A DNA stretch of 64,000 nt from Candidatus Aminicenantes bacterium (GTDB lineage Bacteria; Acidobacteriota; Aminicenantia; Aminicenantales; Aminicenantaceae). The stretch is taken from NCBI GenBank assembly GCA_046483285.1, contig JAWODN010000119.1, positions 6,015-70,014 on the forward strand, written 5' to 3'. Numbering within the stretch: position 1 is the stretch's first letter; every line of letters starts with the position of its first letter. Made by a program: the position numbers and the translations under genes. Below the pieces are notes generated by a model. It searched no databases, was not told where the DNA came from, and was given only the letters and a program-made list of their open reading frames with translations. Positions 2,101-41,895 of the stretch are shown here, piece by piece.

Positions 2101-3417
2101 TCACTTTGAAACGCCGGGCCCGATCAGGATGGAAACACGGTTTTCCGGGTTGAGGACATTTCTGAGAAACATATTAAACGCCTCCCAAGAAATATTTTTC
2201 ATCTCCTTGAGAATTCCATGAAAAAATGAAGAGCCCAGTCCTGTCATTTCAAAAAAAGATATGGTTTGGACCCGCTGCTGTTTGGTTTCATTGGATCTGA
2301 GAAAAGAAGCCAGCGCATAATTCAGGATACTCTCCCATTCTTCTTTTCCCACGCCTTCGGAATAAATTTTATTCATTACGGCTTCCAGTTCGGCTTCGGC
2401 CGCCTCTTTTTTTCCGGATTCGGTTTCAAGGTAAACTTCCATCACCCCGCCTTCGCGAAAGTATTCCATTCTGGCATTGACGTGATAGGCCAGTTTTTTT
2501 TCGTCTCGGAGAGGCCATAGTTTAGAGCCGATCCCTTTTCCCAAGACATGTTCCAGCAAAAAAGCGCCGGCATAACGGCGGGCATTCAGGGGAGGCAGCC
2601 GGTAGGCCATCCCCACCAGGGTCTGCCGGGTGCTTCGCTCAATGGTTTTGGTGCGGCTGTGGATTTCAGGAAGATAAAATTCAGAACGGGCCGGAGGAGA
2701 GCCGGACGGGAATTTATTAAAATGTTCATCCAATAACCGGACAACAGTTTCCATATCCAAATCCGAACACACCATGGCCGTCATATTGCCCGGGCGGAAA
2801 TGGCTGTCAAAAAATTTCCGGATATCTTTTTTTTTGATGGATTTTATGGAGTCTTCAGTTCCGTAGATGGAACGTGCGTATCCGGTGCCGGGAAAAAGCA
2901 GTTCAACCGCGGTCTGATGAGCGGTATTTTCCGAATCATCCCGAAGGCTCTTTATTTGGCGTCCCATCTGTTCCTTGGCATGGTTGATGCGTATCCCGGA
3001 GAGGAGGGGATTCCGCATAATCTCCGAGACAACTTTCAAAGAGTCTTCCAAATTATCTGACAGGCAGGCTATAGAAACAAGAGAGTAGTCCGCGCGGCCG
3101 GTCATTAAGAGCTGGGTCGCCTGGCCCATGATGGTTTGAGTCTTGGACCGGTCGGGAAGAACCAGGGTCATTCTGGTGGACAGGTAAGACAATCCGGATT
3201 TATCGGGGGGTTCGGCGAATTGTCCGCCAGCAATGGAAAATTGGAGGACCGTGATACGGGAAGAGGTGTCCTGCTGATAAATCAGGGGCATTCCTGAGGA
3301 CAGTTGAACTTTTGCCAGCGTGTTTTTTTCACTTCTGGTCCCTGTGTCCGCATTTCCGGAAAAAGAAAGCACAGCCCAAAGAACAAGTCCGAAACAAACC
3401 TTACCGGCTTTTATCAC
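2101..3417 (-). CDS. M16 family peptidase, non-catalytic partner subunit (no HxxEH)
   Basis: 438 aa with an N-terminal signal peptide. It is pitrilysin-like but has no HxxEH zinc motif. The gene is translationally coupled to the upstream catalytic M16 gene (4-nt overlap). Confidence 0.7.
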   Translation of the reverse strand: MIKAGKVCFGLVLWAVLSFSGNADTGTRSEKNTLAKVQLSSGMPLIYQQDTSSRITVLQFSIAGGQFAEPPDKSGLSYLSTRMTLVLPDRSKTQTIMGQATQLLMTGRADYSLVSIACLSDNLEDSLKVVSEIMRNPLLSGIRINHAKEQMGRQIKSLRDDSENTAHQTAVELLFPGTGYARSIYGTEDSIKSIKKKDIRKFFDSHFRPGNMTAMVCSDLDMETVVRLLDEHFNKFPSGSPPARSEFYLPEIHSRTKTIERSTRQTLVGMAYRLPPLNARRYAGAFLLEHVLGKGIGSKLWPLRDEKKLAYHVNARMEYFREGGVMEVYLETESGKKEAAEAELEAVMNKIYSEGVGKEEWESILNYALASFLRSNETKQQRVQTISFFEMTGLGSSFFHGILKEMKNISWEAFNMFLRNVLNPENRVSILIGPGVSK

Positions 3418-4781
3418 GGTTTCTCCTTTTTCTGCGGCGTAATGCTGACCACCACCTGTTTGCCCCCGGCGAGATAATCTCCGGCGGCCGTGCGCAGATC
3501 CGTTGAGCCGGCTTCACGGATTTTATCAAGATACACACCGCGGTCATCCAATTCGTTCAACAGCATATAGCGGGCTATGGAAAACGCCTGGCTCAGACCT
3601 TTTTCCCGGCCTGTTTCCGTGGCGTACCGGATGCGGTTTTTGGCGCTTTCCAGAAAATCAAAAGCGTACCGGGAGGCTTCTCCCATGTGGTCGCTTTTAG
3701 AATAATTGAGTTTTGAAGTGGTGTTGAAATACCTTTGGATAACATGTTTGGCGGTTTTTAGATGTCCGGGATCCAGCCCTAAATAAATGGTCAGAACACC
3801 TCCATAGCGATAGGCCGAGTAACCCATCCGCAGGGATTGAGGGGTGATCCGCCTTTCAGCCAGCGGGTGATAAAGCAGCGGATTGACTCCTCTTCCGAAG
3901 ACTTCGGTCAACAAATCAACGAGATATTGATCCTCATGGTTGTAATCCGGCGCCGGCAGACCGACAGCCAGATAAGCCTGGTGAACATCCATTTCTTTTT
4001 CGATCTCAACGTTTTTTTCCAGCGGAGCGGCTTTTTCCAGGCGTACGGCGGGAAATTCGGCTTCAGGTTCCGTTCCCAAAGTGTTGTTGACCATTTCTTC
4101 CATTTCGGAAAGAGAAAACTCTCCCGCCACGGCCAGAGCCGCATTGGAAGTCACGAAATATTTATTATAAAATTTTTGGATTTGCCCTATGGAAGCGTTT
4201 TTAATGATGTCTTTTTTGCCTAAGACAGGCCGGTGATAGGGATGGCCGGGAAAAATATTTTGATGAATCAATGACATCGCTGTCCGGAAAGGATCATCTT
4301 CCGCCTGGTTGATTTCTTCCAGAATGACCTTTTTTTCTTTTTCCAGAGCCTCCCGGGTTATAGAGAGCCGGAAAATGACGTCTTTGAGGTGGTTCAGGGC
4401 GAATTCAGCGTATTCTGCAGGAAGTGACATCTCAAACACCGTCAGGTCCCGTCCGGTATGGGCGTTGAAATAGGCTCCGTTCCGGCGGATTTCCTTGCGG
4501 ATTGTTTCGGGAGAGCGGGTTTCCGTTCCGAAAAACAAGAGAGAATGTTCCAAAATATGCACAAACCCATTGGTCCGGTCCGTTTCGTTTTTGGAGCCCA
4601 CATCAAAAGCCAAAACAATATTCACCAAGGGCAGACCGGATTTCTCGGAAAGAAAAACTTTGAGGCCGTTATCCATTTGGATATAGCGGCTGGTTTCTTC
4701 ATTTTCCTGCGAGGCCAATTGGGATGGCGGAGGGAGGATGAGAAAAAAGCAAACCAAATATTTGACAATTCTGATTTTCAT
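3414..4781 (-). CDS. M16 family zinc metallopeptidase (catalytic subunit)
   Basis: 455 aa with a signal peptide. Carries the inverted zinc-binding motif 'HILEH' (HxxEH), as in insulinase/pitrilysin. Confidence 0.8.
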   Translation of the reverse strand: MKIRIVKYLVCFFLILPPPSQLASQENEETSRYIQMDNGLKVFLSEKSGLPLVNIVLAFDVGSKNETDRTNGFVHILEHSLLFFGTETRSPETIRKEIRRNGAYFNAHTGRDLTVFEMSLPAEYAEFALNHLKDVIFRLSITREALEKEKKVILEEINQAEDDPFRTAMSLIHQNIFPGHPYHRPVLGKKDIIKNASIGQIQKFYNKYFVTSNAALAVAGEFSLSEMEEMVNNTLGTEPEAEFPAVRLEKAAPLEKNVEIEKEMDVHQAYLAVGLPAPDYNHEDQYLVDLLTEVFGRGVNPLLYHPLAERRITPQSLRMGYSAYRYGGVLTIYLGLDPGHLKTAKHVIQRYFNTTSKLNYSKSDHMGEASRYAFDFLESAKNRIRYATETGREKGLSQAFSIARYMLLNELDDRGVYLDKIREAGSTDLRTAAGDYLAGGKQVVVSITPQKKEKP

Positions 4782-5011
4782 AAAGCCATCCGGATATAGC
4801 CTTGCTTAAATTATACTACATCAACCTTCCTGTTCTTGACAAGAGGGCCCCCGCCGGAATGGGGCGCATGCCGTTTTTCGGTTCACCCGGGAAAATAAGG
4901 AAAACCTTGAACGACAATTTTAAAACTCATGAAAATTGTTATAATCATAAAGATGGCAAAAGCCTGACCGGCCTATTTGGGGGCCGGGTTGAGGAATGAA
5001 TTTATTTGGTT

Positions 5012-5028
5012 TGGCATGATTCTTGTAT
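5012..5028 (+). promoter_or_regulatory. sigma-54-like promoter element (TGGCAT-N5-TTGTA), copy 1 of a thrice-repeated motif
   Basis: The sequence 'tttggtTTGGCATgattcTTGTAttt' lies about 30 nt upstream of the 5055 start. The -24 GG is present. The -12 element is non-canonical (GT instead of GC). Confidence 0.3.
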
Positions 5029-5054
5029 TTGACAAGGGCTAGGAGGTATTAATA

Positions 5055-6206
5055 ATGCGTTTGCTTGGAAAAAAAGAACTGAATGCTTTAATGGAACAAA
5101 AAGGTCCCTATTGCGTTTCCGTCTACATGCCGACGGAAAAAGCGGGACGAGAAACCCGGATGAATCCCATTAGATTCAAAAATCTTATCAGTGCCGCAGA
5201 AAAGAGGCTGGGGGAAACGGATTTGAGTTCCAAGGAGACCGCCGCCATCCTCAAACCGGCCAATGACCTGTTGCTGAATTCGGTTTTCTGGCAGCATCAA
5301 AGCGAAGGCTTGGCCGTGTTCATCACCCCTGAAAATTTTTATCACTTCCAGCTCCCGATAAGTTTTCATGAGGAGATGATCATAAACAACCGGTTTTACT
5401 TAAAACCTCTGCTTTCTCTTTTCAGTGGAGACGGGCGATTTTATATTTTAGCATTGAGTCAAAAAAATGTTCGCTTGCTGCAGGCTTCGCGCTTCAGCTT
5501 CAGTGAAATCCCGCTTGAAGATATCCCCACCAGCATGGAGGAAGCTTTGGGATATGACGCTCTGGAGCAGCATCTGCAATTCCATGTGGCCAGCCGATCG
5601 GGAAAAAAACGGGGGGACCTTATGTTTCATGGGCAAGGCGGAGGCGAGGATGATTTTAAAAAAGATATTCAGCGGTACTTTCACAGAGTGGATAAAGGCC
5701 TTCGTAAGATTTTATCCGGAGAAAGCGCTCCTATGGTCTTGGCGGGAGTCGAATATATCCTTCCTCTGTTCAAGAACGTCAGCTCATATGCCAATTTTTT
5801 GGATGAAGCCGTGACCGGAAATCCGGATGAGTGGAGTGCGGAAGAGCTGCATGAAAAAGCATGGGAAACTGTTGAGCCCAATTTCAAAAAGGAGCAGGAA
5901 AAAGCGATGAAGCAGTTTCAAGATTTGCTCCATACGCCTCAAACTTCCCAGGATCTTAAGAAAATTCTCCCCGCAGCTCAGCACGGGAGGCTGGGTTGGC
6001 TCTTTATGGATGCGGCCGATCAAAGATGGGGGACTTTTCTGCCGGACAAAAATCAGGTGAAAATCGAGAAAGAGAAAAAAACCGGGTTGGAAGAGCTTAT
6101 TGACCTTGCTGCTGTCAAAACATTGGAGCATGGCGGTGTGGTGTATGCCTTGAAAAAAGAAGAGATGCCCGTCAAATCGCCGGTGGCGGCTGTTTTCCGC
6201 TGGTGA
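5055..6206 (+). CDS. hypothetical protein, possibly eRF1/Pelota-fold (bacterial archaeo-eukaryotic release-factor-like)
   Basis: 383 aa. A strong RBS 'ctaggaggtattaataATG' precedes the start. A central glycine-rich loop 'FHGQGGGEDDF' sits at about aa 190, comparable to the GGQ loop position in eRF1. No other recognisable enzymatic motif was found. Confidence 0.35.
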   Translation: MRLLGKKELNALMEQKGPYCVSVYMPTEKAGRETRMNPIRFKNLISAAEKRLGETDLSSKETAAILKPANDLLLNSVFWQHQSEGLAVFITPENFYHFQLPISFHEEMIINNRFYLKPLLSLFSGDGRFYILALSQKNVRLLQASRFSFSEIPLEDIPTSMEEALGYDALEQHLQFHVASRSGKKRGDLMFHGQGGGEDDFKKDIQRYFHRVDKGLRKILSGESAPMVLAGVEYILPLFKNVSSYANFLDEAVTGNPDEWSAEELHEKAWETVEPNFKKEQEKAMKQFQDLLHTPQTSQDLKKILPAAQHGRLGWLFMDAADQRWGTFLPDKNQVKIEKEKKTGLEELIDLAAVKTLEHGGVVYALKKEEMPVKSPVAAVFRW

Positions 6207-6347
6207 TTTTTTTATGCTGTTTTTTGCCATTTTCTTCCGAAAGGAATATATTTAACCTGGCCGGGATGATGAATAGGCCGGGGTGACTCCATATGCGGGG
6301 CGCACGGCAGGCCAGTGGGGGTTAGGGACTGTGGAAGGATACAGAAA

Positions 6348-7796
6348 ATGACTGCGAAACGGAAAGAAAAAATTCTGGTGGTGGATGATGAGAAGAATAT
6401 CAGGAATTCTCTCAAAATGATTTTTGAATATGAGGGATATTCGGTTTTGGAAGCTGAAGACGGGGAAAAAGCAATGGAAGTCTTTGAGGAAGCCATCGGG
6501 ATCGACCTTATCCTTCTGGATGTCCAGCTTCCCGGGAAGAATGGACTGGAGATATTGAAGGAACTCAAGCAAAAGCCGTTTTCTCCTGAAGTTATCATGA
6601 TTTCTGGTCATGGAACCGTCCCGACCGCTGTCGAAGCCACCAAATTGGGGGCCTTTGACTTTTTGGAAAAACCGCTTAAACGGGAGCGGGTTCTGCTGAG
6701 TGTGCGGAATGCCCTCAGCCGGAAGCATCTTGTCCGGGAAAATATAAATCTGCGGCAGAAAGCAGAAAAACAATATCAATTAGTCGGGAATTCTCCTGTG
6801 ATGAAAAAACTATGGGAAGAAATAAAAAAGATCGCTCCCACCAACACCACAGTCATGATTTATGGGGAAAGCGGCACCGGCAAAGAACTTATCGCCCGTG
6901 CCGTCCACTCCCGGAGCCGTAGAGCCAAGGAAGCTTTCATCCAGGTGAACTGCGCCGCCATTCCGGAAGAATTGATTGAAAGTGAATTGTTCGGCCACGT
7001 CAAGGGCGCATTCACCGGAGCGACGGATAAAAAGCCGGGAAAATTTGAATTAGCGGACGGAGGTACCATTTTTCTGGACGAGATTGCGGATATGAGCCTG
7101 AAAACCCAATCGAAAGTGCTTCGGGTTCTGGAAGAAGGAGAGGTGCAGAAAGTGGGTTCCTCCAAGATCGATAAAGTGGATGTCCGGGTGATCGCCGCCA
7201 CCAATAAAGACCTGAAGCAGGAAATATCCCGGAACAATTTCCGGGAGGATTTGTATTTCCGTTTAAATGTGGTTCCCCTGTATTCTCCCCCTCTGCGGGA
7301 AAAACCGGAGGATATCCCGCTTCTGGTTGAATATTTCGCCGGTTTGTTTGTCACTGATAATAATTTCAAGAAAAAAAATTTTTCCGGCAGCGCCCTGGAA
7401 GCCATGCGGAGGCACCACTGGAAAGGCAATGTCAGGGAATTAAAGAACGTGGTTGAGAGATTGATTGTTATGAGTGAAAAAGGTACAATAGAAGCAAAGG
7501 ACCTTCCGGAACAAATAAAAGGGGAAAACAAAATCTTTTTACCGGATACGGATGAGGTGAAAAGTCTGAAAGAATTCCGGGAACAGGCGGAAAAACAGTA
7601 TATTCTGGCCCGTTTGAAAGAGAATGACTGGAATATATCCCGTACCGCCAGGGATATTGATACTCCGAGAAGTAATTTATATAAAAAGTTAGACCAGCAT
7701 GGAATAAAAATAACGTCCGGAGTGGATGAGGTGGTTGCTTCTTCCGAACAGGAAGGGGAGGAAAGTCCGAACTCCACAGGGCAGGATGGTCGCTAA
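6348..7796 (+). CDS. sigma-54-dependent response regulator (NtrC/AtoC family): receiver, AAA+ and Fis-type HTH domains
   Basis: The receiver domain has the phospho-acceptor region 'DLILLDVQLPG'. The AAA+ sigma-54 interaction domain shows Walker A 'GESGTGKE', the 'GAFTGA' motif and the 'ESELFGH' box. A C-terminal HTH is present. No histidine kinase is adjacent. The 3' 80 nt overlap rnpB. Confidence 0.85.
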   Translation: MTAKRKEKILVVDDEKNIRNSLKMIFEYEGYSVLEAEDGEKAMEVFEEAIGIDLILLDVQLPGKNGLEILKELKQKPFSPEVIMISGHGTVPTAVEATKLGAFDFLEKPLKRERVLLSVRNALSRKHLVRENINLRQKAEKQYQLVGNSPVMKKLWEEIKKIAPTNTTVMIYGESGTGKELIARAVHSRSRRAKEAFIQVNCAAIPEELIESELFGHVKGAFTGATDKKPGKFELADGGTIFLDEIADMSLKTQSKVLRVLEEGEVQKVGSSKIDKVDVRVIAATNKDLKQEISRNNFREDLYFRLNVVPLYSPPLREKPEDIPLLVEYFAGLFVTDNNFKKKNFSGSALEAMRRHHWKGNVRELKNVVERLIVMSEKGTIEAKDLPEQIKGENKIFLPDTDEVKSLKEFREQAEKQYILARLKENDWNISRTARDIDTPRSNLYKKLDQHGIKITSGVDEVVASSEQEGEESPNSTGQDGR

Positions 7797-8079
7797 CAGC
7801 GACTCCGGGCAACCGGAGGAAAGTGCCGCAGAAAACAAACCGCCTGGGGAATGATTGTCCGCAGGCAAGGGTGAAAAGGTGAGGTAAGAGCTCACCGCTT
7901 TGAGAGTGATCTCAAAGGCACGGTAAACCCCATCCGGAGCAAGGCCAAATTGGCCCTGATGAGGCGGCCCGTCTCATGGGGCGGGTAGGCCGCTTATGCT
8001 TTATTTCGGCAAAGCGCAGATAAATAACCACCCCCGCCTCCGGCGGGAACAGAATTCGGCTTATGTCCCGCTCCGGACG
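7714..8079 (+). ncRNA. rnpB: RNase P RNA (bacterial type A)
   Basis: Universally conserved blocks are present: 'GGAGGAAAGTCCGAACTCCACAGGGCAGG', 'CGGAGGAAAGTGCCGCAGAAAACAAACCGCC', 'GGTGAAAAGGTGAGGTAAGAGCTCACC', 'GGTAAACCCCATCCGGAGCAAGGCCAAAT' and 'ACAGAATTCGGCTTATG'. The P1 helix pairs 5' 'cgtccggagtgg' with 3' 'ccgctccggacg'. Confidence 0.9.
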
Positions 8080-8180
8080 TTTTTCCCATTCATATCAACA
8101 GCATTTATTTTAATTCCGGTCCGCTCATCATCCGGACTGATTTTAGGGCATAAGAAATTTCAGAATTTTCAAACGGGGAG

Positions 8181-9611
8181 TCACAACACAGGAAGAGACA
8201 TCACGGCCTGTTTGATAAAAATAATGACATTTCCCGGGAACAGCCCCAGCTGCAACACACCGTACAAACAAACAAAAAGGACCAGGAACAAGGCCGGGTT
8301 TTCAACAAAAATCTCTATTTTATGCACCGGTTCCCGCATATACATGATGACGATGATTCTCAGGTAATAATAAACGGATATTAAACTGGCGATGACGCCG
8401 ATGATCACCAATGGGATCATATCCTGACGGACGGCTGCGGAAAACACATAAAATTTCGCCAGAAATCCTCCGGTGGGAGGGAATCCGGCAAGGGAAAACA
8501 GAAAAACGGAAAGAGTGGCCCCGATCCAGGGATACTTGAATCCGATTCCTGCGTACTGGTCGATTTCCAGGTATTCTTCCCCTTTCCGGCTGAGTCCCGT
8601 GACTGCAGTGAACGCCCCGATATTCATAAACAAATATACGGTGAGATAAAAAAGCAGGCTGAAATTATCCTTGGCCAGCACCGCGATCAGGATATAGCCG
8701 GCGTGGGCGATGCTGGAATAGGCCAGCATCCGTTTGATGTTTTTTTGTTTGATCGCCAGGATGTTCCCAATCATCATCGTCAGTACGGCCAGCACCCAGA
8801 GCGCGTTTCGGAATGCTTCTGAATAGAGGGCGGATTCCCAGTAGGGAGTAAAGAGTGTGACAAAAACAGCGAATCCGGCGGTTTTGGGAATGACTGAGAA
8901 AAAAGCTGTCACAGGAGTGGGCGAACCTTGGTAAACATCCGGGGTCCACATATGGAAGGGAACCAGCGCGATTTTGAATCCGAATCCCACCAGAACCAAT
9001 CCCAACCCGATAATGGCGGTGATCTCCCGTCCGGTTTGAACGGCATCCATTATGGAGGGAATAGAGGTGGTTTTGGAGGCGCCGAATAAAAGCGCGATGC
9101 CGTAAATGAGAAAAGCGGACGCAAAACTTCCCAGGAGAAAATATTTGACCGCGGCTTCACCTGATTTGAGATTATTTCTCTGCAATCCGGCCAGGGCGTA
9201 ACTGGACATGGACAGCACTTCCAATCCCAGAAAAATAATCACCAGGTCTTTGGAAGTGACCATAATGACGCCCCCGGTCAGCGCCAGCAGAAGCAGGGCG
9301 TAATATTCACCGAAGTTCATTTCCTGATGGTCGATGTACTTCATGGAGATAAGCATCACTAAAAAAGTGGTTATGACGAGAATCAGCAGGAAAAAGAGCG
9401 AAACCTGATCTAAAATCAGATAGCCGCTGAAAAAGCTGTAATTTTTTCCCCAGGAGAGAATGCAAAACGCGGCGCTTATGATGAGGAAAACAACTCCTGT
9501 AAATGCCAAATGGTTTTTGTTTTTCCTGGGGAAAAAGACTTCCAGCAATAGGATGATAAGGGATCCGGCCATCAGGCTGACTGTCGGGGCTGTTGCCAAT
9601 ATATTATTCAT
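8181..9611 (-). CDS. nuoN: NADH-quinone oxidoreductase subunit N
   Basis: 476 aa polytopic membrane protein of the NuoN/Mrp antiporter-like family. It is the last gene of the J-K-L-M-N run. Confidence 0.85.
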   Translation of the reverse strand: MNNILATAPTVSLMAGSLIILLLEVFFPRKNKNHLAFTGVVFLIISAAFCILSWGKNYSFFSGYLILDQVSLFFLLILVITTFLVMLISMKYIDHQEMNFGEYYALLLLALTGGVIMVTSKDLVIIFLGLEVLSMSSYALAGLQRNNLKSGEAAVKYFLLGSFASAFLIYGIALLFGASKTTSIPSIMDAVQTGREITAIIGLGLVLVGFGFKIALVPFHMWTPDVYQGSPTPVTAFFSVIPKTAGFAVFVTLFTPYWESALYSEAFRNALWVLAVLTMMIGNILAIKQKNIKRMLAYSSIAHAGYILIAVLAKDNFSLLFYLTVYLFMNIGAFTAVTGLSRKGEEYLEIDQYAGIGFKYPWIGATLSVFLFSLAGFPPTGGFLAKFYVFSAAVRQDMIPLVIIGVIASLISVYYYLRIIVIMYMREPVHKIEIFVENPALFLVLFVCLYGVLQLGLFPGNVIIFIKQAVMSLPVL

Positions 9612-11160
9612 GGGATTCGGTCATATGCTCAATTTTTTCTGAATTTTTTCCCGGAATTTTATCCTGCACAAAAACGGATTGCCGGTTTTGGACCTGGTTT
9701 ATGATGAACTCAACCGAGGCCTCCATCTTTTCTAGAAAAGGACGGGGATAGATGCCCATTAAGAAAATCAGGATCAAGATGGGAATGAAATATCCCAATT
9801 CCCTTTTGCTCAGATCATTAAACTGCTTAACATGCTGATGGGTTATAGGGCCTTGCATAACCCTCTGATACATCCATAAGAGATAAGCCGCTCCCAAAAT
9901 AATGGTGGTCACACCCAGTACGGCCATGAGCGGGCTGGTCTGAAATATTCCGAATAAACAAAGAACCTCTCCCACAAACCCGTTCAATCCGGGAAGGCCC
10001 GCGGAGGAGAGAATGACGATCAGAAAAACCGCCGCAAAAACCGGCATCCGGCGGCTGACGCCCCCGTAATCTTTTATCAAGCGGGTATGGGCCCGCTGGT
10101 AAAGGATGCCCACACAAAGAAACAAAGCGCCTGTGCTCAATCCATGATTCAGCATTTGATATATTGCGCCCTGCAGGGAATCCAAATTCACAGCGAAAAC
10201 AGCCAGCATGATTAATCCCATATGGCTGACGCTGGAATAGGCCACCAGGGATTTAACATCTTTTTGGGTTAAAGCCATCAAGGCCCCGTATATAATTCCA
10301 ATGACACTGAGAACCATGAGCAGGGGAACGAACTTTTCCACGGCTTCCGGAAAAAGGGGCAGCCCGAAACGCAAAAATCCGTAGGTGCCCATTTTGAGAA
10401 GCACTCCGGCCAGGATGACCGAACCGGCAGTGGGCGCTTCCACATGGGCATCCGGAAGCCAGGTGTGGAAGGGAAACATGGGAACTTTAATGGCGAAAGC
10501 AAGACCGAAGGCCAGAAAAAGCCAGGTCTGAATTCCGGGAGGCAATATAATTTCATAGAAGTCAAAAATATTGAGCGAAAAGACACCGGTCGCTTTATAG
10601 TACAGGGAATAGAGGAAAATAATCGCCACCAGCATCAGAAGGCTTCCGAACATGGTGAACAAGACGAATTTGACGGTGGCGTAAATGCGGCGTTTGCCGC
10701 CCCATATTCCGATTAAAAAATACATGGGAATGAGCATGGCTTCCCAGAAAATATAGAAAAGAAAAAGGTTGAGCGAAACGAACACACCGATGATGCCGCA
10801 CTGAAGCATCAGCATGAACATGTGATATTCTTTGACATGCTTTTCGATGGCGGTCCACGAAGAGAGGATGATGATCGGCATCAGAAAATTAGTCAGCAGC
10901 ACCAAAAGCAGGCTGATTCCGTCCACCCCCACGTGGTATTCCAGCCCGAATCCCAGCCACTGGGATTTTTCCGTAAACTGGGGGGCTGAGATTCCGTTTT
11001 CAAACCGGAAAAACAAGATCAAGGATAACAGGAAGTTGATAAGCGTGATTCCCAACGCCAAATGCCTTGCCAGGCGGTGTTCGTTCCGGTGGATAAAAAC
11101 AAAGAGAACCGCTCCCAGCAGCGGGAAAAAGGTCACAAGCGACACAATTGGTATATTCAT
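9604..11160 (-). CDS. nuoM: NADH-quinone oxidoreductase subunit M
   Basis: 518 aa, antiporter-like subunit with conserved 'HTWLPDAH' and 'AYSSVSHMG' blocks. Confidence 0.85.
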   Translation of the reverse strand: MNIPIVSLVTFFPLLGAVLFVFIHRNEHRLARHLALGITLINFLLSLILFFRFENGISAPQFTEKSQWLGFGLEYHVGVDGISLLLVLLTNFLMPIIILSSWTAIEKHVKEYHMFMLMLQCGIIGVFVSLNLFLFYIFWEAMLIPMYFLIGIWGGKRRIYATVKFVLFTMFGSLLMLVAIIFLYSLYYKATGVFSLNIFDFYEIILPPGIQTWLFLAFGLAFAIKVPMFPFHTWLPDAHVEAPTAGSVILAGVLLKMGTYGFLRFGLPLFPEAVEKFVPLLMVLSVIGIIYGALMALTQKDVKSLVAYSSVSHMGLIMLAVFAVNLDSLQGAIYQMLNHGLSTGALFLCVGILYQRAHTRLIKDYGGVSRRMPVFAAVFLIVILSSAGLPGLNGFVGEVLCLFGIFQTSPLMAVLGVTTIILGAAYLLWMYQRVMQGPITHQHVKQFNDLSKRELGYFIPILILIFLMGIYPRPFLEKMEASVEFIINQVQNRQSVFVQDKIPGKNSEKIEHMTESHE

Positions 11161-14375: not shown

Positions 14376-14391
14376 TGGCATGATTTTTGAA
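14376..14391 (+). promoter_or_regulatory. sigma-54-like promoter element (TGGCAT-N5-TTGAA), copy 2 of the repeated motif
   Basis: The sequence 'ttgtTTGGCATgatttTTGAAgg' lies 57-72 nt upstream of the 14448 ATG. Confidence 0.25.
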
Positions 14392-14447: not shown

Positions 14448-17400
14448 ATGAACCCGCGCATTTTTTATAAAACCGCCGGTATGACATTGTTTATCGTTTT
14501 GATTTTCACCGCCTATCCAGTGGAGGCGCAGTATTTCGGCCGCAACAAAGTTCAGTATGACACATTTGACTTCAAAGTGATCAGCACCAAAAATTTTGAC
14601 CTTTATTTTTATCCGGAGGGAGAAGAGGCCGCCCGGATGGCCGCCCGGATGGCGGAAAGGTGGTATTCCCGGCTGTCCCGGATATTGCAGCATGAGCTGT
14701 CCGGCCGGCAGATCCTCATTTTATACACCAGCGGACCTCATTTCCAGCAGACCACCGCCATTCCCAGAATTTTAGGGGAAGGCGTCGGAGGTGTGACGGA
14801 AAGCCTCAAGCGGAGAATCGTGCTTCCCATGTCGGCATCATTAGAGGAATCCAACCATGTGATCGGTCATGAATTGGTCCATGCCTTTCAATATGATATC
14901 ACCGGCCAGTATCATTCTGATTTCGCCCGCGTCGCTCCCTCCATCCAGCGCCTCCCTCTTTGGTTTGTGGAAGGGATGGCGGAATACCTGTCCTTAGGAC
15001 CCGTGGACTCTCATACCGCCATGTGGATGCGGGATATCCTGAAAAAAGAAGAACTTCCCGGAATTCATCAACTGAATAATCCCCGATATTTCCCTTATCG
15101 GTACGGGCATGCGGTTTGGGCCTATATAACCGGAAGATGGGGCGACCAGGCCGTTCCGGGAATCCTGAAGCGCGTCGGGCGGGCCGGTGACTACCGGACC
15201 GCAATTAAAGAGGTCACAGGCGAGGATATCAAAGACATTTCCCAGTCATGGCATAAATCTTTAAGAGAGGCTTATCAACCGGTTCAGGAACGAACTCTGA
15301 TGGTGGATGAACTGAGCGAGCCCCTTATTCCCGGAACCCGTCAGAACTCCTTGAATATATCACCGGCTCTGAGCCCGGACGGAAAAAGCCTGGTGTTTTT
15401 GTCCACCAAGGATATTTTTTCCATTGATATGTTTCTCGCCGATGCCGAAACCGGCGAGTTCAAGCGCAAGCTGGTCAGCACTGCGGTCAATCCTCATTTT
15501 TCCAGCCTTCAGTTCACCAGATCAGCGGGAAGCTGGGATTTTGACGGCCGCCGTTTTGTGTTCGGAGCGGTGACCGGGGGGGATCCGGTTTTAAGCATAT
15601 TGAATATTCCCTCCGGAGACAAAGTCCGGGAAATCAGATTTCCGGAATTAGGAGAGGTGCTCAATCCGGCCTGGTCTCCGGACGGCCGAAATATTGTTTT
15701 TTCCGCTTTGGACGGGGGGGTTTCCAATCTGTTTCTCTACGATTTGGAGACCGATCAGTTGACAAAATTAACCGATGACCCTTATGCCGATCTTTATCCG
15801 GCCTGGTCTCCGGACGGCCGGAAAATCGCCTTTTCCACCGACCGATTTTCAACAGATCTGGCTCTCTTGGATATAGGCCATTTCGAGTTGGCCATGCTGG
15901 ACATACAAACACGAAAAATTCAAAAGCTGCCGGGTTTCTCCGAGGCGAAAAATATAAATCCCCAGTGGTCCTCCGATTCCCGGGAGCTGTACTTTATTTC
16001 CGACCGCACAGGAATTTCCAACTTGTATAATTTGGATCTGGAAACCGAAACCATCACTCAAATCACCGACTTATACACCGGAGTTTCCGGAATCACGGAG
16101 CTCAGCCCGGCGCTTTCGGTTGCCAGTGCGACCGAAAAATTAGCTTACTGCATTTACGAAAACGATTATTACAGCATTTATTCCGTCGAATCGGGCCGGG
16201 AATTGATCCGCGGCGAACAGACGGTGTATACGGAGCTGCGGCCTTCGGTTTTGCCCCCCCGCTCTCAACCGGAAGGAACGGTGGCAGGCTTGCTCCGGAA
16301 TCCATTATTCGGGCTCCCGGAGGCGAGGGAATATCAGCCTGAGGATTATAAGTCCGCCCTGACTCTGGATTATATCGCTCCGCCTCAAATGGCGGTGGGA
16401 GTGGACCGGTTCGGCACCTACGGGGGGGGCGGAATCGCCTTGTTTTTCAGCGATGTTTTGGGTTACCAGAGCCTTGCCACTATGGCCCAGGTGAGCTCCC
16501 GTATTCTGAATTCAGCGGCAGCGGTGAGTTATTTATATAAACAATACCGGTGGAATTTCGGCGGTGTCGCCCAGAGGATGCCTTATGTGACCGGAGGATT
16601 CACCCAATCCGTCCAAAATGTGCGGGGGGAGCCGGCTTTGGTGGAACAGGAGTTCACATTCCGCCAGGTCAATTACCAAGTGTCAGCCTTGGCTGAATAC
16701 CCTTTCAGCCAGGTTTTTCGATTTGAATTATCAGGCGGATATCAATATCTCAATTTCGACCGCGAAGTCCGCACCCGGGCCGTCTCGCTTATTGACAATG
16801 CCACGCTTATCAATGAGAAGGAAAGCCTGCCCGCCCCGGACAGCCTGCATTTCGGACGAGGAAGCGCCGCCCTGGTCTATGACAGCTCTTATGTTGGAGC
16901 CACCAGTCCGGTGCTGGGCCAGCGCTACCGGATGGAAGTGTCTCCCATGGCGGGATCCATTAATTTTGCGGAGGTTCTGACGGATTACCGCCGATATTTT
17001 ATGCCGGTCCAACCTTTCACCCTGGCGTTCCGTTTCATGCACTACGGCCGCTATGGTCCCGGCGCGGAAGACAGCCGTCTCTATCCCTTATTCATGGGTT
17101 ATCAAACCATGGTCAGAGGATATAACACCGCGTCCTTCAGCGCCGAAGAATGCGGTGAAGAAGGCTGTCAGGTTTTCAATCAATTATTCGGCAGTAAAAT
17201 GATGGTGGCCAATCTGGAGCTGAGATTTCCTCTTTTCAATGTGCTGGGTATAGGCAGGGGATTTTACGGGATTCTGCCTGTTGAGTTTTCTGCTTTTTTT
17301 GACAGCGGCCTGGCCTGGAACACCCAGGATAAAGCCTGGTTTTTGGGAGGGGACCGCCGGCCGGTCAAAAGCGCGGGCATCGGTCTGCGCATGAATATTT

Positions 17401-17495
17401 TCGGCTATGCCATCGCCGGAATCAGCTATGTGTATCCTTTTGACCGGCCCAATAAAGACGCCTACTTTCAGTTTTGGCTGACTCCCGGCTTTTAA
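14448..17495 (+). CDS. secreted multidomain protein: HExxH zincin peptidase, TolB-like beta-propeller and C-terminal Omp85-type beta-barrel
   Basis: A strong RBS 'caggaggaaaaATG' precedes the 14448 start, and a signal peptide ends at 'VEA/QYF'. The metallopeptidase motif is 'GHELVHAFQYD'. Repeated 'PAWSPDG' blades mark the propeller. The last roughly 400 aa alternate hydrophobic and polar residues and end in '...YFQFWLTPGF' (terminal F), which is typical of Omp85/BamA barrels. Confidence 0.75.
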   Translation: MNPRIFYKTAGMTLFIVLIFTAYPVEAQYFGRNKVQYDTFDFKVISTKNFDLYFYPEGEEAARMAARMAERWYSRLSRILQHELSGRQILILYTSGPHFQQTTAIPRILGEGVGGVTESLKRRIVLPMSASLEESNHVIGHELVHAFQYDITGQYHSDFARVAPSIQRLPLWFVEGMAEYLSLGPVDSHTAMWMRDILKKEELPGIHQLNNPRYFPYRYGHAVWAYITGRWGDQAVPGILKRVGRAGDYRTAIKEVTGEDIKDISQSWHKSLREAYQPVQERTLMVDELSEPLIPGTRQNSLNISPALSPDGKSLVFLSTKDIFSIDMFLADAETGEFKRKLVSTAVNPHFSSLQFTRSAGSWDFDGRRFVFGAVTGGDPVLSILNIPSGDKVREIRFPELGEVLNPAWSPDGRNIVFSALDGGVSNLFLYDLETDQLTKLTDDPYADLYPAWSPDGRKIAFSTDRFSTDLALLDIGHFELAMLDIQTRKIQKLPGFSEAKNINPQWSSDSRELYFISDRTGISNLYNLDLETETITQITDLYTGVSGITELSPALSVASATEKLAYCIYENDYYSIYSVESGRELIRGEQTVYTELRPSVLPPRSQPEGTVAGLLRNPLFGLPEAREYQPEDYKSALTLDYIAPPQMAVGVDRFGTYGGGGIALFFSDVLGYQSLATMAQVSSRILNSAAAVSYLYKQYRWNFGGVAQRMPYVTGGFTQSVQNVRGEPALVEQEFTFRQVNYQVSALAEYPFSQVFRFELSGGYQYLNFDREVRTRAVSLIDNATLINEKESLPAPDSLHFGRGSAALVYDSSYVGATSPVLGQRYRMEVSPMAGSINFAEVLTDYRRYFMPVQPFTLAFRFMHYGRYGPGAEDSRLYPLFMGYQTMVRGYNTASFSAEECGEEGCQVFNQLFGSKMMVANLELRFPLFNVLGIGRGFYGILPVEFSAFFDSGLAWNTQDKAWFLGGDRRPVKSAGIGLRMNIFGYAIAGISYVYPFDRPNKDAYFQFWLTPGF

Positions 17496-31420: not shown

Positions 31421-31469
31421 CATGAAAATGATCCCAATGTCATTGCCGGAGCGGAGCACTTTTGAGTCT

Positions 31470-31830
31470 GTCATTCCGGGGCACGCCGTGCCTTTGAGTG
31501 TGTCATCCCGCGGTGCGAAGCACCGAGGGATCCCTTACTGGTTCGTTTTGGCGGTGGGTTCTGCTTTCACGAGGCAGGAAGGGATTGCCGCGGCTTGCTG
31601 GCGCAAGCCTCGCAATGACAAGGGGGCATGTCATTCCGGGGCACGCCGTGCCTTTGAGTGTGTCATCCCGCGGTGCGAAGCACCGAGGGATCCCTTACTT
31701 CTTCGTCTTGGCGGTTGGCCCCGCTTTCACGAGGCAGGAAGGGATTGCCGCGGCTTGCTGGCGCAAGCCTCGCAATGACAAAGTGGAATGTCGTCCCGGG
31801 GAGCGAAGCGATGAGGGATCTGTGAGTGCC
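31470..31830. repeat. 160-bp tandem repeat (2 full units plus a degenerate third), hairpin-rich
   Basis: Unit 1 spans 31470-31629 and unit 2 spans 31630-31789, with more than 90% identity. A partial degenerate unit follows to about 31830. Each unit starts 'gtcattccgggg' and ends 'cctcgcaatgacaa', and contains several perfect hairpins (ggcacg/cgtgcc; cggtgc-gaa-gcaccg; ggcttgc/gcaagcc). Confidence 0.8.
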
Positions 31831-31928: not shown

Positions 31929-32011
31929 TAAGGTATAGGTCAGGCTTGCCTGGCCTGTTCACGGGCCGCGATCGCAATTTTTTTATGAATAAGCCAGGGG
32001 AATGAATCAGG

Positions 32012-32824
32012 TTGGATAAGGAGAAAACAATGCCGGAATTACCCGATGTGGAAGTTTTCAGACAATATATGGAGGCCACATCTCTGCACAAGAAAATAAC
32101 AGGCGTGGAGGTTGAAAATGAACGGGTCCTCCAGGATATCACTCCCTCCGGATTAGGTCAAAAGCTCAAGGGGCGCCTGTTCGAAAGAACCAGACGGCAT
32201 GGAAAACATATGTTCGCCTGTGCGGATGGGGAATTCTGGGTGATGTTCCATTTCGGCATGACCGGCTTTTTCAAGTATTTCAAGAATGAAGAAGACAAAC
32301 CGCCTCACGCCCGGGTGTTGTTTCATTTTGATAATGGATTTTGTCTGGCTTATGACAGCCAGAGGATGTTGGGGAAAATCAGGATCGTGGAAGACGCGGG
32401 GGATTTTATCCGGCAGAACGAATTAGGTCAAGACGCCCTGGGTTTGTCCTGGGACGCTTTTCAAAACCGGATGCATGGCCGGCGCGGCACGGTGAAAACC
32501 GCCTTGATGAATCAGAGCCTTATGGCCGGCATCGGAAATATTTACTCGGACGAGATTTTATTTCAAACCGGAATCCATCCTAAAACCCAAATGAACAATC
32601 TGAATGAAGGCCTTCTTAAAAAGATGCATGAGCACATGCAGAGGGTTTTGAAAACAGCCGTTGACAAAAAAGCGGATCCGGAGGAATTCCCGGATGATTT
32701 TCTGGTTCCACACCGGGGAAGCGGAAATAAATGCCCCCGCTGCGGCGGAGAGATAAAAAAAGTCAAAGTGAACAACCGGGGAACCTATTTTTGCCCGCAA
32801 TGCCAGCCGTCTCCTCATAGTTGA
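32012..32824 (+). CDS. formamidopyrimidine-DNA glycosylase / endonuclease VIII family (Fpg/Nei)
   Basis: 270 aa with the N-terminal catalytic 'MPELPDVE', an H2TH region and a C-terminal zinc finger 'CPRCGGEI...CPQC'. Confidence 0.85.
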   Translation: MDKEKTMPELPDVEVFRQYMEATSLHKKITGVEVENERVLQDITPSGLGQKLKGRLFERTRRHGKHMFACADGEFWVMFHFGMTGFFKYFKNEEDKPPHARVLFHFDNGFCLAYDSQRMLGKIRIVEDAGDFIRQNELGQDALGLSWDAFQNRMHGRRGTVKTALMNQSLMAGIGNIYSDEILFQTGIHPKTQMNNLNEGLLKKMHEHMQRVLKTAVDKKADPEEFPDDFLVPHRGSGNKCPRCGGEIKKVKVNNRGTYFCPQCQPSPHS

Positions 32825-38122: not shown

Positions 38123-38155
38123 GTTCGTGGTGCATTATACACATGATGAATTCAT
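38123..38155. repeat. right copy of the inverted repeat paired with 31388-31420
   Basis: 'gttcgtggtgcattatacacatgatgaattcat' is the reverse complement of 31388-31420 with 2 mismatches. Confidence 0.7.
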
Positions 38156-38396: not shown

Positions 38397-38412
38397 TGGC
38401 ATGATTTTTGTA
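38397..38412 (+). promoter_or_regulatory. sigma-54-like element (TGGCAT-N5-TTGTA), copy 3 of the repeated motif
   Basis: The sequence 'agTTGGCATgatttTTGTAtttatg' lies about 160 nt upstream of the dodecin gene. Confidence 0.2.
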
Positions 38413-38571
38413 TTTATGTTTAATAATAAACCTGAAGTATTCAAGGGCCGAGATTGCCGCAGATGCGAGGCGCATGACTAAAAACCATGCTTACTGCTGA
38501 TAAGAAAAAGATTGCGCAAACATGGTAATTTTTTTATGAATAGTTCAGGCTAAATAAAAAGGAGGAAAATC

Positions 38572-38772
38572 ATGAGTACGGCAAAAGTCATTGAAATTAT
38601 CGGAAGTTCGGAAACAAGCTGGGAAGACGCAGCCCAAAAAGCTTTATTGGACGCGGAAAAATCAGTGGAAGGCATAACCGGTTTAGAAGTGGTATCGCAA
38701 ACTGCAGAGGTTGAAAATAACAAGATTAAATATTACAAAACTGCTATTCGAGTCGCCTTTATTGTTAAATGA
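38572..38772 (+). CDS. dodecin family flavin-binding protein
   Basis: 66 aa, 'KVIEIIGSSETSWEDAAQKALLDAEKSVEGITGLEVV...IRVAFIV' matches the dodecin fold consensus. The RBS is 'aaaggagg'. Confidence 0.7.
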   Translation: MSTAKVIEIIGSSETSWEDAAQKALLDAEKSVEGITGLEVVSQTAEVENNKIKYYKTAIRVAFIVK

Positions 38773-39054: not shown

Positions 39055-41895
39055 ATGTATACTGTATTGATTTTGATTTTACTGGGTTTATCCGGGTGGC
39101 TCATTTATCGCGGAGTTCAGAGAAAACACACCGGAAGAACTGTATTCGGGATAATCCTGGCTCTGTTTACTGTGGGGTTTTTCTGGTTTATGGATTTCTG
39201 GGGAGAAATGCTGTGGTTCGAGGCCCTGGGCTACAATCAGAGGTTCTGGATCGTGGTGCTCAGCCAAACCGCAGTGGCGCTGGCCGGAATTATACTCGGC
39301 GGTGTCATTGTATGGCTGCTCACCTTGAAAATCCCATCCGAAAAAAGATGGTTTAAGCTGGGAGCCCGTATCCTGGGAGCATTCACCGGAGCTGCCTGGG
39401 CATTATCCAACTGGGAAGCTATTTTGCGTTTTTGGTTCCGGGTGGGATCGGAAACGACGGATCCGGTGTTGGGGAAAACTACCTCATTCTATATGTTCAG
39501 CCTGCCTTTTTTCGACCGTTTTTATGAGCTTTTGCTGCTGCTGGCGCTGATAGGCATAGGCGCGGTTTTTGCGGCTGCTTTCCTGCGGTTTGAAGGGGAG
39601 CAGATTGATTTTAATCTGCCGCAGCTGACCTCCGGGTCCGGCAAAGCCATGGTCGAAAATTTTTTTCGGGGCGCTTCCGTGCTTTTGGTGGTGCTGGCAT
39701 TCGGCAAATATTTAAGCCGGTTTCATTTGATGTATTCGGATTGGGGCGCGGTCACAGGCGCCGGCTGGACGGATGTTAATATCCGGTTACCCGGATATTT
39801 GGTTGCGGTTGCAGTTTCGATTTTACTGGCGGCCGGACTGCTTTTTCCGGCAGTCCGCACCAGGCTGGGAAAGCTTTTTTACCCCAAAAAATACGGCGGC
39901 CAAAAAGCTCCGCTTTACACATTTATATCCGCCGCAATTGTGCTGTTCGGGACTTGGTTTTTGGTCCTGACCGCGATACCCGGACTATTCCAGTGGCTGC
40001 GGGTGGAGCCCAATGAAATCACTTTTGAAAAACCTTATATTCAAAACAACATTAAGCTTACCCGGGAGGGATTCGGTCTGCATTTAATCGAAGAAAGGGA
40101 ATTTCCGGTTGCGGAAACATTTACTCCTGAAATGGTGGATGAAAATCAAAGTATCTTCCAAAATATCCGGTTATGGGATTGGCGGGCTCTGGATGCGGTC
40201 TATAAACAATTTCAGGAAATCCGCTTGTATTATGAGTTCCAGGATGTGGATATCGACCGGTATACCTTTAACGGCCAATACCGCCAGGTTATGGTGTCCG
40301 CACGGGAAATGCAGTTTTCCAATCTTCCTTTGCAAAGCCAGACTTTTGTCAACCAGCGGTTTAAATATACCCACGGCAACGGCATCACCCTGACCACAGT
40401 GCAGGAATTCACCCCCCAGGGTTTGCCCAATCTTCTGATTAAGGATATCCCGCCTCAAAGTGAATATCCGGAACTGAAAGTCGACCGTCCGCAAATTTAT
40501 TATGGAGAATTGACCAACTATCATGTGATTTCCAACAGCGATGAAGAGGAATTTGATTATCCCAGCGGAGAAGAGAATGTTTATTCCCGGTATCAGGGAG
40601 AAGGCGGAGTCCGGATGTCCAATATCTGGCGAAAATTTCTTTTCGGGTGGAAATTCGACGGCACCCGGCTTTTTCTGTCCAGCTATCCGAATCCGGACAG
40701 CCGGATCATGTTCCGCCGCCGGATTAAGGACCGGGTCCGGACTTTGGCGCCTTTTCTGCGTTTTGATGACGACCCGTATGTGGTTTTAGCAAACGGCAAA
40801 CTCTATTGGATCATCGACGCCTATACCAGTTCCGCCTATTTTCCTTACAGCGAACCTTTTTCGTCGCAGGAAGTGATCGAGTATCAAGAAGGGAATATTT
40901 CCCGGACGTTGACGAACCAGATCGCAACCCGGCTGGACGGCGCCAATTATATCCGCAATGCCGTGAAAGTGGTGGTGGATGCCTATGAAGGATCGGTTGA
41001 TTTCTATATTTTTGATCCGGAAGATCCCATTATCCAAGTTTGGAGCCGGATTTTTCCGGATTTGTTTAAAAAAAAGGACGACATGCCGGAATCCCTCTTG
41101 CCGCATATCCGGTATCCCGCCGACCTGCTGCTGGTGCAGGGACGGGTCTTTTCAAAATATCATATGACGGACCCGGCCGTGTTTTATAATCAGGAAGATT
41201 TATGGATCCGTGCGACCGAAAAGTATTATGATCAGGTCCAGCCGGTTGAACCCTATTATGTGATGTGGGAGCTGCCGGAAGAAGACGAGCCCCAGTTTGT
41301 TCTGATTCTGCCCTTTACGCCTAAAAACCGGCAGGTGATGATCGGTTGGATAGCCGGAATGTGCGATCCGGAGAATTACGGACGTTTTCTGGCCTATAAA
41401 TTTCCCAAAGAAAAGCGGGTGCTGGGTCCCCAGCAGGTGGAAACCAAAATAGATCAAGAACGCTTTTTATCCGGCCAATTAAGTCTCTGGAATCAGCGGG
41501 GATCCAGTGTCATCCGGGGTAACGTGCTGGCCATTCCAGTGGATAAAACCGTTATTTATGTTGAACCGATTTATCTGCAAGCTGAAACCGCGGCCTATCC
41601 GGAACTCCGGCTGGTGGTGGTTATGCACGGCGATAATCTCAGCTATGCCGAGACCTTTGAAAAAGCCCTGCAAGGACTGTTTGATAAAACCATTCCCGAG
41701 CAGGCTTTGCCGCAGGAAGCACCTGCTGAAGCCGCAGCTCCCTTGGATACGCTGATTCAGGATGCCGACCGGGCCTTCAATGATTATCTTCGCTTGCTCG
41801 GGGAAAAGCGTTTCGGAGAAGCCGGGCAAGCCTTGGATCGTCTGCAGAACGCACTGAACCGTCTGGTTGAGCAGTCCGGACAAAACCGGCAATGA
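39055..41895 (+). CDS. UPF0182 family large membrane protein
   Basis: 946 aa with an N-terminal multi-TM region and a large extracytoplasmic domain. Blocks 'NYIRNAVKVVVDAYEGSVDFY', 'PHIRYPADLLLVQGRVFSKYHMTDPAVFYN' and 'VIYVEPIYLQAETAAYPELRLVVVMHGD' closely parallel actinobacterial UPF0182 proteins. Confidence 0.8.
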   Translation: MYTVLILILLGLSGWLIYRGVQRKHTGRTVFGIILALFTVGFFWFMDFWGEMLWFEALGYNQRFWIVVLSQTAVALAGIILGGVIVWLLTLKIPSEKRWFKLGARILGAFTGAAWALSNWEAILRFWFRVGSETTDPVLGKTTSFYMFSLPFFDRFYELLLLLALIGIGAVFAAAFLRFEGEQIDFNLPQLTSGSGKAMVENFFRGASVLLVVLAFGKYLSRFHLMYSDWGAVTGAGWTDVNIRLPGYLVAVAVSILLAAGLLFPAVRTRLGKLFYPKKYGGQKAPLYTFISAAIVLFGTWFLVLTAIPGLFQWLRVEPNEITFEKPYIQNNIKLTREGFGLHLIEEREFPVAETFTPEMVDENQSIFQNIRLWDWRALDAVYKQFQEIRLYYEFQDVDIDRYTFNGQYRQVMVSAREMQFSNLPLQSQTFVNQRFKYTHGNGITLTTVQEFTPQGLPNLLIKDIPPQSEYPELKVDRPQIYYGELTNYHVISNSDEEEFDYPSGEENVYSRYQGEGGVRMSNIWRKFLFGWKFDGTRLFLSSYPNPDSRIMFRRRIKDRVRTLAPFLRFDDDPYVVLANGKLYWIIDAYTSSAYFPYSEPFSSQEVIEYQEGNISRTLTNQIATRLDGANYIRNAVKVVVDAYEGSVDFYIFDPEDPIIQVWSRIFPDLFKKKDDMPESLLPHIRYPADLLLVQGRVFSKYHMTDPAVFYNQEDLWIRATEKYYDQVQPVEPYYVMWELPEEDEPQFVLILPFTPKNRQVMIGWIAGMCDPENYGRFLAYKFPKEKRVLGPQQVETKIDQERFLSGQLSLWNQRGSSVIRGNVLAIPVDKTVIYVEPIYLQAETAAYPELRLVVVMHGDNLSYAETFEKALQGLFDKTIPEQALPQEAPAEAAAPLDTLIQDADRAFNDYLRLLGEKRFGEAGQALDRLQNALNRLVEQSGQNRQ

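Follow-up and report, generated by a model that had tools for sequence, protein, structure and literature searches.

A Balon-type, aeRF1-like protein gene with a conserved sigma-54-type promoter beside a putative kinase-orphan activator

The closest described relatives of the gene considered here are ribosome hibernation factors. Balon (Psychrobacter urativorans AOC03_06830; 8RD8, 8RDV and 8RDW), Msmeg1130 and Rv2629 (8V9J, 8V9K and 8V9L) have been seen in the ribosomal A site together with EF-Tu; they carry neither NIKS nor GGQ, and the catalytic centre is kept inert (PMC10901736). Balon homologues are present in approximately 20% of bacteria, where their genes frequently form part of stress operons and lie beside raiA, with RtcB among their common neighbours (PMC10901736), and one has been found on LrtA-bound hibernating Synechocystis ribosomes (preprint 10.64898/2026.07.03.736309). 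Among the baeRF families, association with HPF is typical and the catalytic loop is poorly conserved in the widespread families (Burroughs and Aravind 2019, PMC6514570). Here, we describe a protein of this kind, encoded by an open reading frame (ORF) of 383 amino acids in a 64-kb stretch of DNA (referred to throughout as the window) that probably derives from an uncultured, Acidobacteriota-related lineage, together with the sigma-54-type promoter that precedes it and the gene for a sigma-54 activator that lies next on the same strand.

The sigma-54 factor is known for its remit in nitrogen, envelope, and motility functions, and RtcR is the sigma-54 activator of the RNA-repair operon rtcBA. The hpf gene lies beside rpoN in Proteobacteria, a linkage from which HPF (Pfam PF02482) took its original name, 'sigma-54 modulation protein'. 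Both RtcR/rtcBA and the rpoN–hpf linkage are precedents that tie sigma-54 to upkeep of the translation apparatus; the present locus differs from them in that the hibernation-type gene itself has a −24/−12 promoter, and in that the activator is of the predicted phosphorylation-controlled kind rather than a CARF-domain RtcR. Our literature search turned up no published link between sigma-54 and Balon or baeRF proteins.

We consider it fairly probable that the ORF encodes a Balon-type hibernation factor, expressed monocistronically from the sigma-54-type promoter, with the neighbouring activator as the prime candidate for its control. Such a protein would bind idle or stalled ribosomes in the A site, independently of mRNA reading and probably together with EF-Tu, and would block and protect them with no hydrolysis of peptidyl-tRNA. 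The protein itself is a fresh member of an already known family, and it is the regulatory wiring that is newly described: if the reading is correct, a phosphorelay input would decide on the parking of ribosomes, and sigma-54, beyond its known remit, would directly control a ribosome hibernation factor. As the organism is uncultured, the pay-off rests on heterologous or in vitro work.

Family, fold, and loop of the Balon-like protein

5055–6206, forward strand: Balon-type (baeRF-1 clade) aeRF1-like protein, 383-amino-acid ORF with an ATG start (Pfam, NCBIfam, phmmer, AlphaFold2, and Foldseek)
5625–5657, forward strand: loop FHGQGGGEDDF, residues 191–201, the likely positional counterpart of the eRF1 GGQ loop and the Balon lasso loop, located before M-domain helix 198–219

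At the level of sequence, the ORF product scores 168.3 bits against Pfam baeRF_family7 (gathering cut-off 27.2), and baeRF_family7, 3, and 6 all match it with E-values from 1.5e-49 to 4e-40, families 3 and 6 lying well over their thresholds. NCBIfam NF052287 (AOC03_06830 family ribosome hibernation factor, a model based on Balon) matches from end to end (E 2.6e-44), and the sole sequence match in the PDB is Balon itself (8rd8_B; phmmer E 2e-11, residues 7–382 against 3–368); the authors of the Balon study took iterated HMMER as their own homology criterion, and here homology is detectable by phmmer. At the level of structure, an AlphaFold2 model built from 36 homologues (predicted local distance difference test 85, predicted template-modelling [TM] score 0.77, disorder confined to loop 168–197) has Balon as its top Foldseek match (E 1.4e-24, TM 0.64–0.68), followed by Msmeg1130 and Rv2629, then eRF1/aRF1 (E ~1e-12, TM ~0.4), and then Pelota/Dom34 (E ~1e-6). 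The alignments to Balon, aRF1, and eRF1 span the full length, giving the N, M, and C domain architecture. A preliminary description, made from the sequence alone, had placed a 383-amino-acid ORF at 5055 and likened it to the eRF1-fold factors and the bacterial baeRF families; the ORF is confirmed, and profile hidden Markov model (HMM) searches and structure prediction both detect that fold.

The protein also belongs to a sizeable subfamily. A profile search returned 11,268 cluster representatives at E ≤ 1e-3, the top 150 of which are all about 383 amino acids long and aligned over their full length; the ~383-amino-acid subfamily comprises at least 150 clusters at 50% identity. No exact match to the window's protein is on record in public assemblies, and two of its close homologues carry the label 'Acidobacteriota bacterium'. 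None of the PADLOC defence models matches it.

Compared with the known systems, the protein shares with Balon, Msmeg1130, and Rv2629 the same three-domain fold, a similar length, the lack of NIKS and GGQ, flexibility of the loop that takes the place of GGQ, and stress-type neighbourhoods (ftsH in some relatives, and HPF in the locus L077; here and below, L-numbers denote loci of relatives that carry the Balon-like gene and/or the orthologous activator). With baeRF_family7, 3, and 6 (the baeRF-1 clade), it has in common HMM membership and the three-domain architecture, in addition to the HPF association seen in L077. With aeRF1/eRF1 and Pelota/Dom34, it shares the fold, the domain order, and an LVLAG-type M-domain core, but it has no NIKS, no GGQ, and no conserved catalytic Gln, and, being bacterial, it would coexist with RF1 and RF2.

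Several properties of the protein nevertheless count against a simple equation with Balon. Its NF052287 score of 152.2 bits does not reach the equivalog cut-off of 330, and its identity to Balon in the structural alignment is only ~18%. The segment ...THREHPAND... of Balon is aligned to ...TEKAGRETR..., so that the HP dipeptide (the residues meant by the authors' 'HP' being inferred from the alignment with Balon) is replaced by G-R; across the subfamily, the equivalent site is G in 81% of members, with P, A, or R as the next residue. In addition, the loop bears an [FY]HG[HQ]G signature not present in P. urativorans Balon, and is well conserved throughout the ~383-amino-acid subfamily, in contrast to the weak loop conservation described for baeRF families 1, 2, and 6, which are widespread (PMC6514570). 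The score against NF052288 (MSMEG_1130 family) is 17.5 bits, relative to a cut-off of 480. Because full-length family matches are combined with a score below the NF052287 equivalog cut-off, and with an HP dipeptide that is aligned to G-R, we assign the protein to a broadly defined Balon/baeRF-1 family, outside the narrow P. urativorans equivalog family.

The glycine-rich loop, which the preliminary description compared with the GGQ loop, resembles it in position and not in identity. It stands before the long M-domain helix 198–219, which is followed by MVLAG, the same order as the GGQ–helix–LVLAG of eRF1, and on the structural model (where it falls partly within the disordered 168–197) we infer that it occupies the GGQ position of eRF1. 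Human eRF1 (as an approximate query sequence) gave only a weak local match to the family profile (E 0.035, probability 1.4%), which served solely to anchor the M-domain start and not as evidence of homology. Neither the GGQ tripeptide nor the NIKS tetrapeptide is found in the 383-amino-acid sequence. Over 151 members sharing less than 50% identity with one another, the loop signature is [FY]HG[HQ]G..DD.K, with an [FY]HG[HQ]G core; G193 is conserved in 95%, H192 in 79%, G195 in 85%, and K202 in 87%, in contrast to position 194, where His accounts for 45% of members, Gln for 37%, and Thr for 7%. In the closest relatives, HGHG replaces the HGQG of the window. Conservation this strong means that the loop may have a specific role, and, more tentatively, its His-Gly-x-Gly might contact the peptidyl-transferase centre in a manner different from that of the lasso loop of Balon; we know of no description of an [FY]HG[HQ]G loop in contact with the catalytic centre.

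It is at this loop that a catalytically active release or rescue factor has to be weighed, one in which the His-Gly-x-Gly loop would enter the peptidyl-transferase centre and hydrolyse peptidyl-tRNA on stalled ribosomes. The location of the loop at the GGQ position and the unusual conservation of its two glycines and its histidine speak for such an activity, and a few baeRF families may be active hydrolases (PMC6514570). However, the hallmarks of a class-I release factor, namely a GGQ with invariant Gln and a stop-codon recognition motif, are both absent; the closest structures are all of non-catalytic hibernation factors; an HPF gene adjoins one homologue (in L077); and RF1 and RF2 are, as is well established, still required for normal termination. 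We therefore regard a catalytic rescue factor as improbable, and the rescue or peptidyl-tRNA hydrolysis function first proposed for this protein gives way to that of its closest characterised relatives. Given that the loop is not GGQ, that Gln is found in only 37% of members, and that NIKS is absent, hibernation appears more likely than peptide release or rescue.

The sigma-54-type promoter and its conservation

5012–5027, forward strand: sigma-54-type promoter TGGCATGATTCTTGTA (TGGCAT-GATTC-TTGTA), GG at 5013–5014 (−24) and GT at 5025–5026 (−13/−12)
5041–5046, forward strand: Shine–Dalgarno sequence AGGAGG, invariant in aligned relatives
6174–6216, forward strand: intrinsic-terminator-like hairpin with a 13-bp stem and a U-run (−19.9 kcal/mol, z −2.07), spanning the stop codon of the Balon-like gene
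4937–4945, forward strand: TGTTATAAT, resembling an extended −10 element; relatives retain the block AATTGYTATAAT 5′ of the sigma-54 motif

The early call of a sigma-54-type promoter in front of the ORF is backed by comparison with relatives. The motif TGGCATGATTCTTGTA agrees with the sigma-54 consensus at TGGCAYG and TTG, has exact GG-N10-G(C) spacing, and lies 43 nt 5′ of the ATG, with a predicted transcription start at ~5038 and a 17-nt leader. Within the window, TGGCAYN5TTGYW is observed twice (0.27 expected), and TGGCATGATTYTTGWA is present in three copies (at 5012, 14376, and 38397), against an expectation of 0.25 even if two mismatches are tolerated. Each copy is intergenic and lies on the forward strand, 5′ of a forward-strand gene; because they are alike only over a core of ~18 nt, we regard them as a shared signal rather than a repeated element. 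Running from this promoter to the intrinsic terminator at its end, the Balon-like gene would form a monocistronic unit, and with such a layout its expression should need RpoN and an ATP-hydrolysing activator.

The form TTGGCAYGWTTYTTGKA is kept in L081/82, L087/88, L089/90, L101, and L077, at 37–43 nt from the ATG (as TTGGCAYGWTTYTTGGA at 42 nt in L087/88, L089/90, and L101, and as TTGGCATGATTTTTGGA at 37 nt in L077). The 17-nt block has a pairwise identity of 91% among these five lineages, compared with 32% in the 40 nt upstream and 53% in the downstream segment that includes the Shine–Dalgarno sequence. The arrangement of the window recurs in the 97%-identical relative L081/L082, and the canonical motif is likewise accompanied by a downstream 482-amino-acid activator in L087/88 (72%), L089/90 (70%), and L101 (72%); within the clade of at least 69% identity, the canonical motif is found only in loci with the activator downstream. 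The ftsH-linked relatives (L083–86, L091, L099, L100, and L103/106) have no activator nearby, and show either zero intergenic space or a decayed GGGAAT-N5-T[TA]GAAT, again 42 nt away from the ATG. Activator-linked loci are basal in a neighbour-joining tree (calculated with no bootstrap), with the ftsH-linked loci as a derived clade, which suggests that the sigma-54 arrangement is older than the ftsH linkage. In the sister clade L083/L086/L091/L099/L106, the Balon-like gene lies 13–75 nt 3′ of ftsH and is probably co-transcribed with this stress protease gene; a class I methyltransferase gene comes next after it in L083–L086 and L099.

Set against these findings are a number of observations that tell against sigma-54 control. 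The −12 element reads TTGT and not TTGC, the base in question being T here and G, A, or T in relatives, but never C. Our survey of the wider family covered 80 species-level loci, among which L077 alone has the motif. No rpoN gene was found in domain scans of the large ORFs of the 64-kb window, and a search 5′ of the three window promoters and in L087, L089, and L101 found no convincing common activator-binding site with conserved sequence and spacing; an inverted repeat ACAATTTT-N10-AAAATTGT is present at 4914–4939, with a spacing not kept in L087 or L089, and a further one, ACACAT-N17-ATGTGT, lies near 38148. Finally, the TGYTATAAT of the AATTGYTATAAT block, kept in the window, L087, L089, and L101, could drive sigma-70 transcription, and it may be a second, sigma-70-type promoter for the Balon-like gene.

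Taken to its conclusion, this last point yields an alternative in which the TGGCA-N7-TTG block does not function as a sigma-54 promoter and might instead be an operator or a site for some other factor, with TGYTATAAT and the housekeeping sigma factor driving the gene. The conserved −10-like element and the missing consensus C at −12 fit this alternative, as do the ftsH-linked relatives, which get by with a degenerate block. Weighing on the other side are the match to TGGCAYG and TTG with exact spacing, the fixed distance of the block from the ATG, its recurrence in front of three genes of the window that are unrelated to one another and of further genes in L092, and the GAFTGA-bearing activator, which shows that the lineage uses sigma-54. 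On balance, we think it unlikely that the block has nothing to do with sigma-54, and we retain the sigma-54-type promoter as the preferred reading.

Several minor features were noted in the same region. An imperfect G+C-rich hairpin (GACCGGCC...GGCCGGGTT, 4962–4990) separates the sigma-54 motif from the TATAAT-like element; L087 and L089, whose two elements stand 16–17 nt apart, lack this hairpin, and the hairpin region looks like an insertion of ~50 nt. A strong sigma-70-like candidate, TTGACA-16-AATAAT (5029–5056), was rejected, as transcripts from it would start within the ORF and neither L087 nor L089 contains it.

The neighbouring activator

6348–7796, forward strand: response-regulator-type sigma-54 activator of 482 amino acids (receiver, AAA+ with GAFTGA, and HTH_8; Pfam domains)
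6224–6252, forward strand: sigma-70-like promoter TTGCCA-17-TATATT, serving the activator gene
7718–8079, forward strand: RNase P RNA gene (class A, rnpB; Rfam RF00010, 287 bits), overlapping the 3′ end of the activator gene

The gene downstream encodes, as first described, an enhancer-binding protein with receiver, AAA+, and helix-turn-helix (HTH) domains. Pfam finds Response_reg, Sigma54_activat, AAA_lid_14, and HTH_8, and from the sequence we read a GAFTGA motif, a Walker A motif, and the receiver residues D13, D14, D58, S86, and K108; a receiver with Asp D58, a GAFTGA AAA+ domain, and a Fis-type HTH are the attributes of the NtrC family of enhancer-binding proteins. ATG 6348 is a likelier start than GTG 6315. 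The protein falls under the NCBIfam equivalog cut-offs for AtoC (438 against 714), NtrX (438 against 600), and NtrC (413 against 559), and the JGI label 'NtrX' on its orthologues is automatic. The lack of an adjacent kinase is likewise borne out: no histidine kinase was found among the large ORFs of the window, and none next to the activator orthologue in any of seven further contexts. In the mechanism that we propose, the activator, expressed from its own sigma-70-like promoter, would be switched on via phosphorylation of Asp58 by an unlinked kinase, and its control of the Balon-like promoter is plausible.

The relationship between the two genes is, at the same time, looser than it was first taken to be. 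The activator had been said to follow immediately; instead, a gap of 141 nt separates the two ORFs, with the terminator-like hairpin (6174–6216) and the sigma-70-like promoter (6224–6252) at the junction. Both L087 and L095, the latter having no Balon-like gene, show the promoter form TTGCCATTTT...TAtAtT 5′ of their activator orthologue, and on this layout the Balon-like gene and the activator are predicted to be separate transcription units. A backbone consisting of M16-M16-(TrkA) on one strand, activator–rnpB, and nuoN/M/L is found in L094, L095/96, and L097/98, where the activator is 72–74% identical and there is neither a Balon-like gene nor a sigma-54 motif. Activator orthologues are 86–87% identical in L087/L089 (84–87% where sequence is available, and 72–75% in many metagenome contigs), and in the lineages with 86–87% identity the Balon-like protein is 70–72% identical.

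These data bear directly on whether the activator is the dedicated partner that its position had suggested, and here they speak against our preferred assignment. Its own promoter, the terminator between the genes, and a backbone that is kept without the Balon-like gene lead us to read the activator as a conserved kinase-orphan regulator with a wider role, and they mean that the adjacency may be positional, not functional. The link is, moreover, not a rule of the family as a whole, as L026 and L032 have an activator near the Balon-like gene with no sigma-54 motif (the L026 promoter reads TTGACA-17-TATACT). One may thus suppose that the sigma-54 promoter is real but served by another enhancer-binding protein, the neighbour being an NtrX-like global regulator that is adjacent only by virtue of the intergenic site which the Balon-like gene occupies. 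This supposition also accommodates the better conservation of the activator relative to the Balon-like protein, and L077, where the Balon-like protein is 42% identical and the same promoter is present with no activator within 6 kb. What opposes it is the pattern within the close clade, where the canonical motif is always paired with activator adjacency, and where loci lacking that adjacency have a decayed motif at the unchanged distance of 42 nt from the ATG. We treat an unlinked activator as a possibility to be taken seriously, albeit a distinctly less probable one, and keep the neighbouring protein as the prime candidate. The idea that the sigma-54 motif was originally the promoter of the activator was rejected, since the motif is missing 5′ of the activator in relatives that do not carry the Balon-like gene.

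The 3′ end of the activator gene is itself unusual. Its last 79 nt (26 codons) form the 5′ part of rnpB, and this overlap is kept in L087 (about 3400–3560) and L089 (about 7650–7800); the resulting C-terminal tail of the activator, ..EGEESPNSTGQDGR, is conserved in relatives. The ORF at 7996–8367 is spurious.

Other motif-bearing units and a possible regulon

14376–14391, forward strand: second sigma-54-type motif, TGGCATGATTTTTGAA, 57 nt 5′ of ATG 14448, which opens the gene for a 1015-amino-acid PD40/Omp85 protein (14448–17495)
38397–38412, forward strand: third sigma-54-type motif, TGGCATGATTTTTGTA, 5′ of the genes for dodecin (38572–38772) and a UPF0182 protein (39055–41895)

The genes behind these two further motifs meet the Balon-like gene again in L077. 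In that locus (5964–11051), the motif is followed by the Balon-like gene, a gene for an HPF–cold-shock fusion, and the PD40 orthologue, and no terminator was detected between the genes. The fusion protein (7271–7900, 209 amino acids, directly 3′ of the Balon-like gene) joins HPF (Ribosomal_S30AE) to a cold-shock domain; the PD40 protein is 63% identical to the PD40/Omp85 protein of the window; and a divergent UPF0182 gene, whose product is 68% identical to that of the window, adjoins the Balon-like promoter. Units that carry the motif separately in the window, three in all, thus lie side by side in a relative. In L092 (52% identical), similar motifs are located 5′ of a run of genes for an M50 peptidase, a 97-amino-acid protein, and the Balon-like protein, and again just 3′ of that run. 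Together, the shared motif and the L077 cluster hint at a sigma-54 regulon. Extending this further, ribosome hibernation might be wired into a sigma-54 regulon under a kinase-orphan response-regulator activator, as a signal-triggered dormancy programme that couples ribosome parking with envelope remodelling; we offer this only tentatively, and consider it doubtful at present.

A scan of metagenomes yielded eight loci. Within the window, the block TTTTTTATGAAYARNYCAGG is present twice (38530–38549 and 31979–31998; 0.08 expected), 30–45 nt 5′ of the start codons of dodecin and of an Fpg-like ORF at 32012, and a longer version, CATGGTAATTTTTTTATGAAYARTTCAGG, stands just 5′ of the Balon-like sigma-54 motif in L101 (about 478–510); the block may be a promoter or terminator element. 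The dodecin leader matched no Rfam family in an E-value search, and its fold has a z-score of −0.66. The sequence in the window that comes nearest to the textbook consensus for sigma-54, with one mismatch, is TGGCAAGGGTCTTGCT at 62927–62942 on the reverse strand, inside the 3′ end of an alpha-2-macroglobulin-like ORF and ~100 nt 5′ of a class A penicillin-binding protein gene (60602–62830). Between the NAD-dependent DNA ligase and Fpg-like genes, positions 31469–31788 constitute a tandem duplication of a 160-nt unit, the two copies of which are 94% identical and each hold a palindrome around GGGATCCC.

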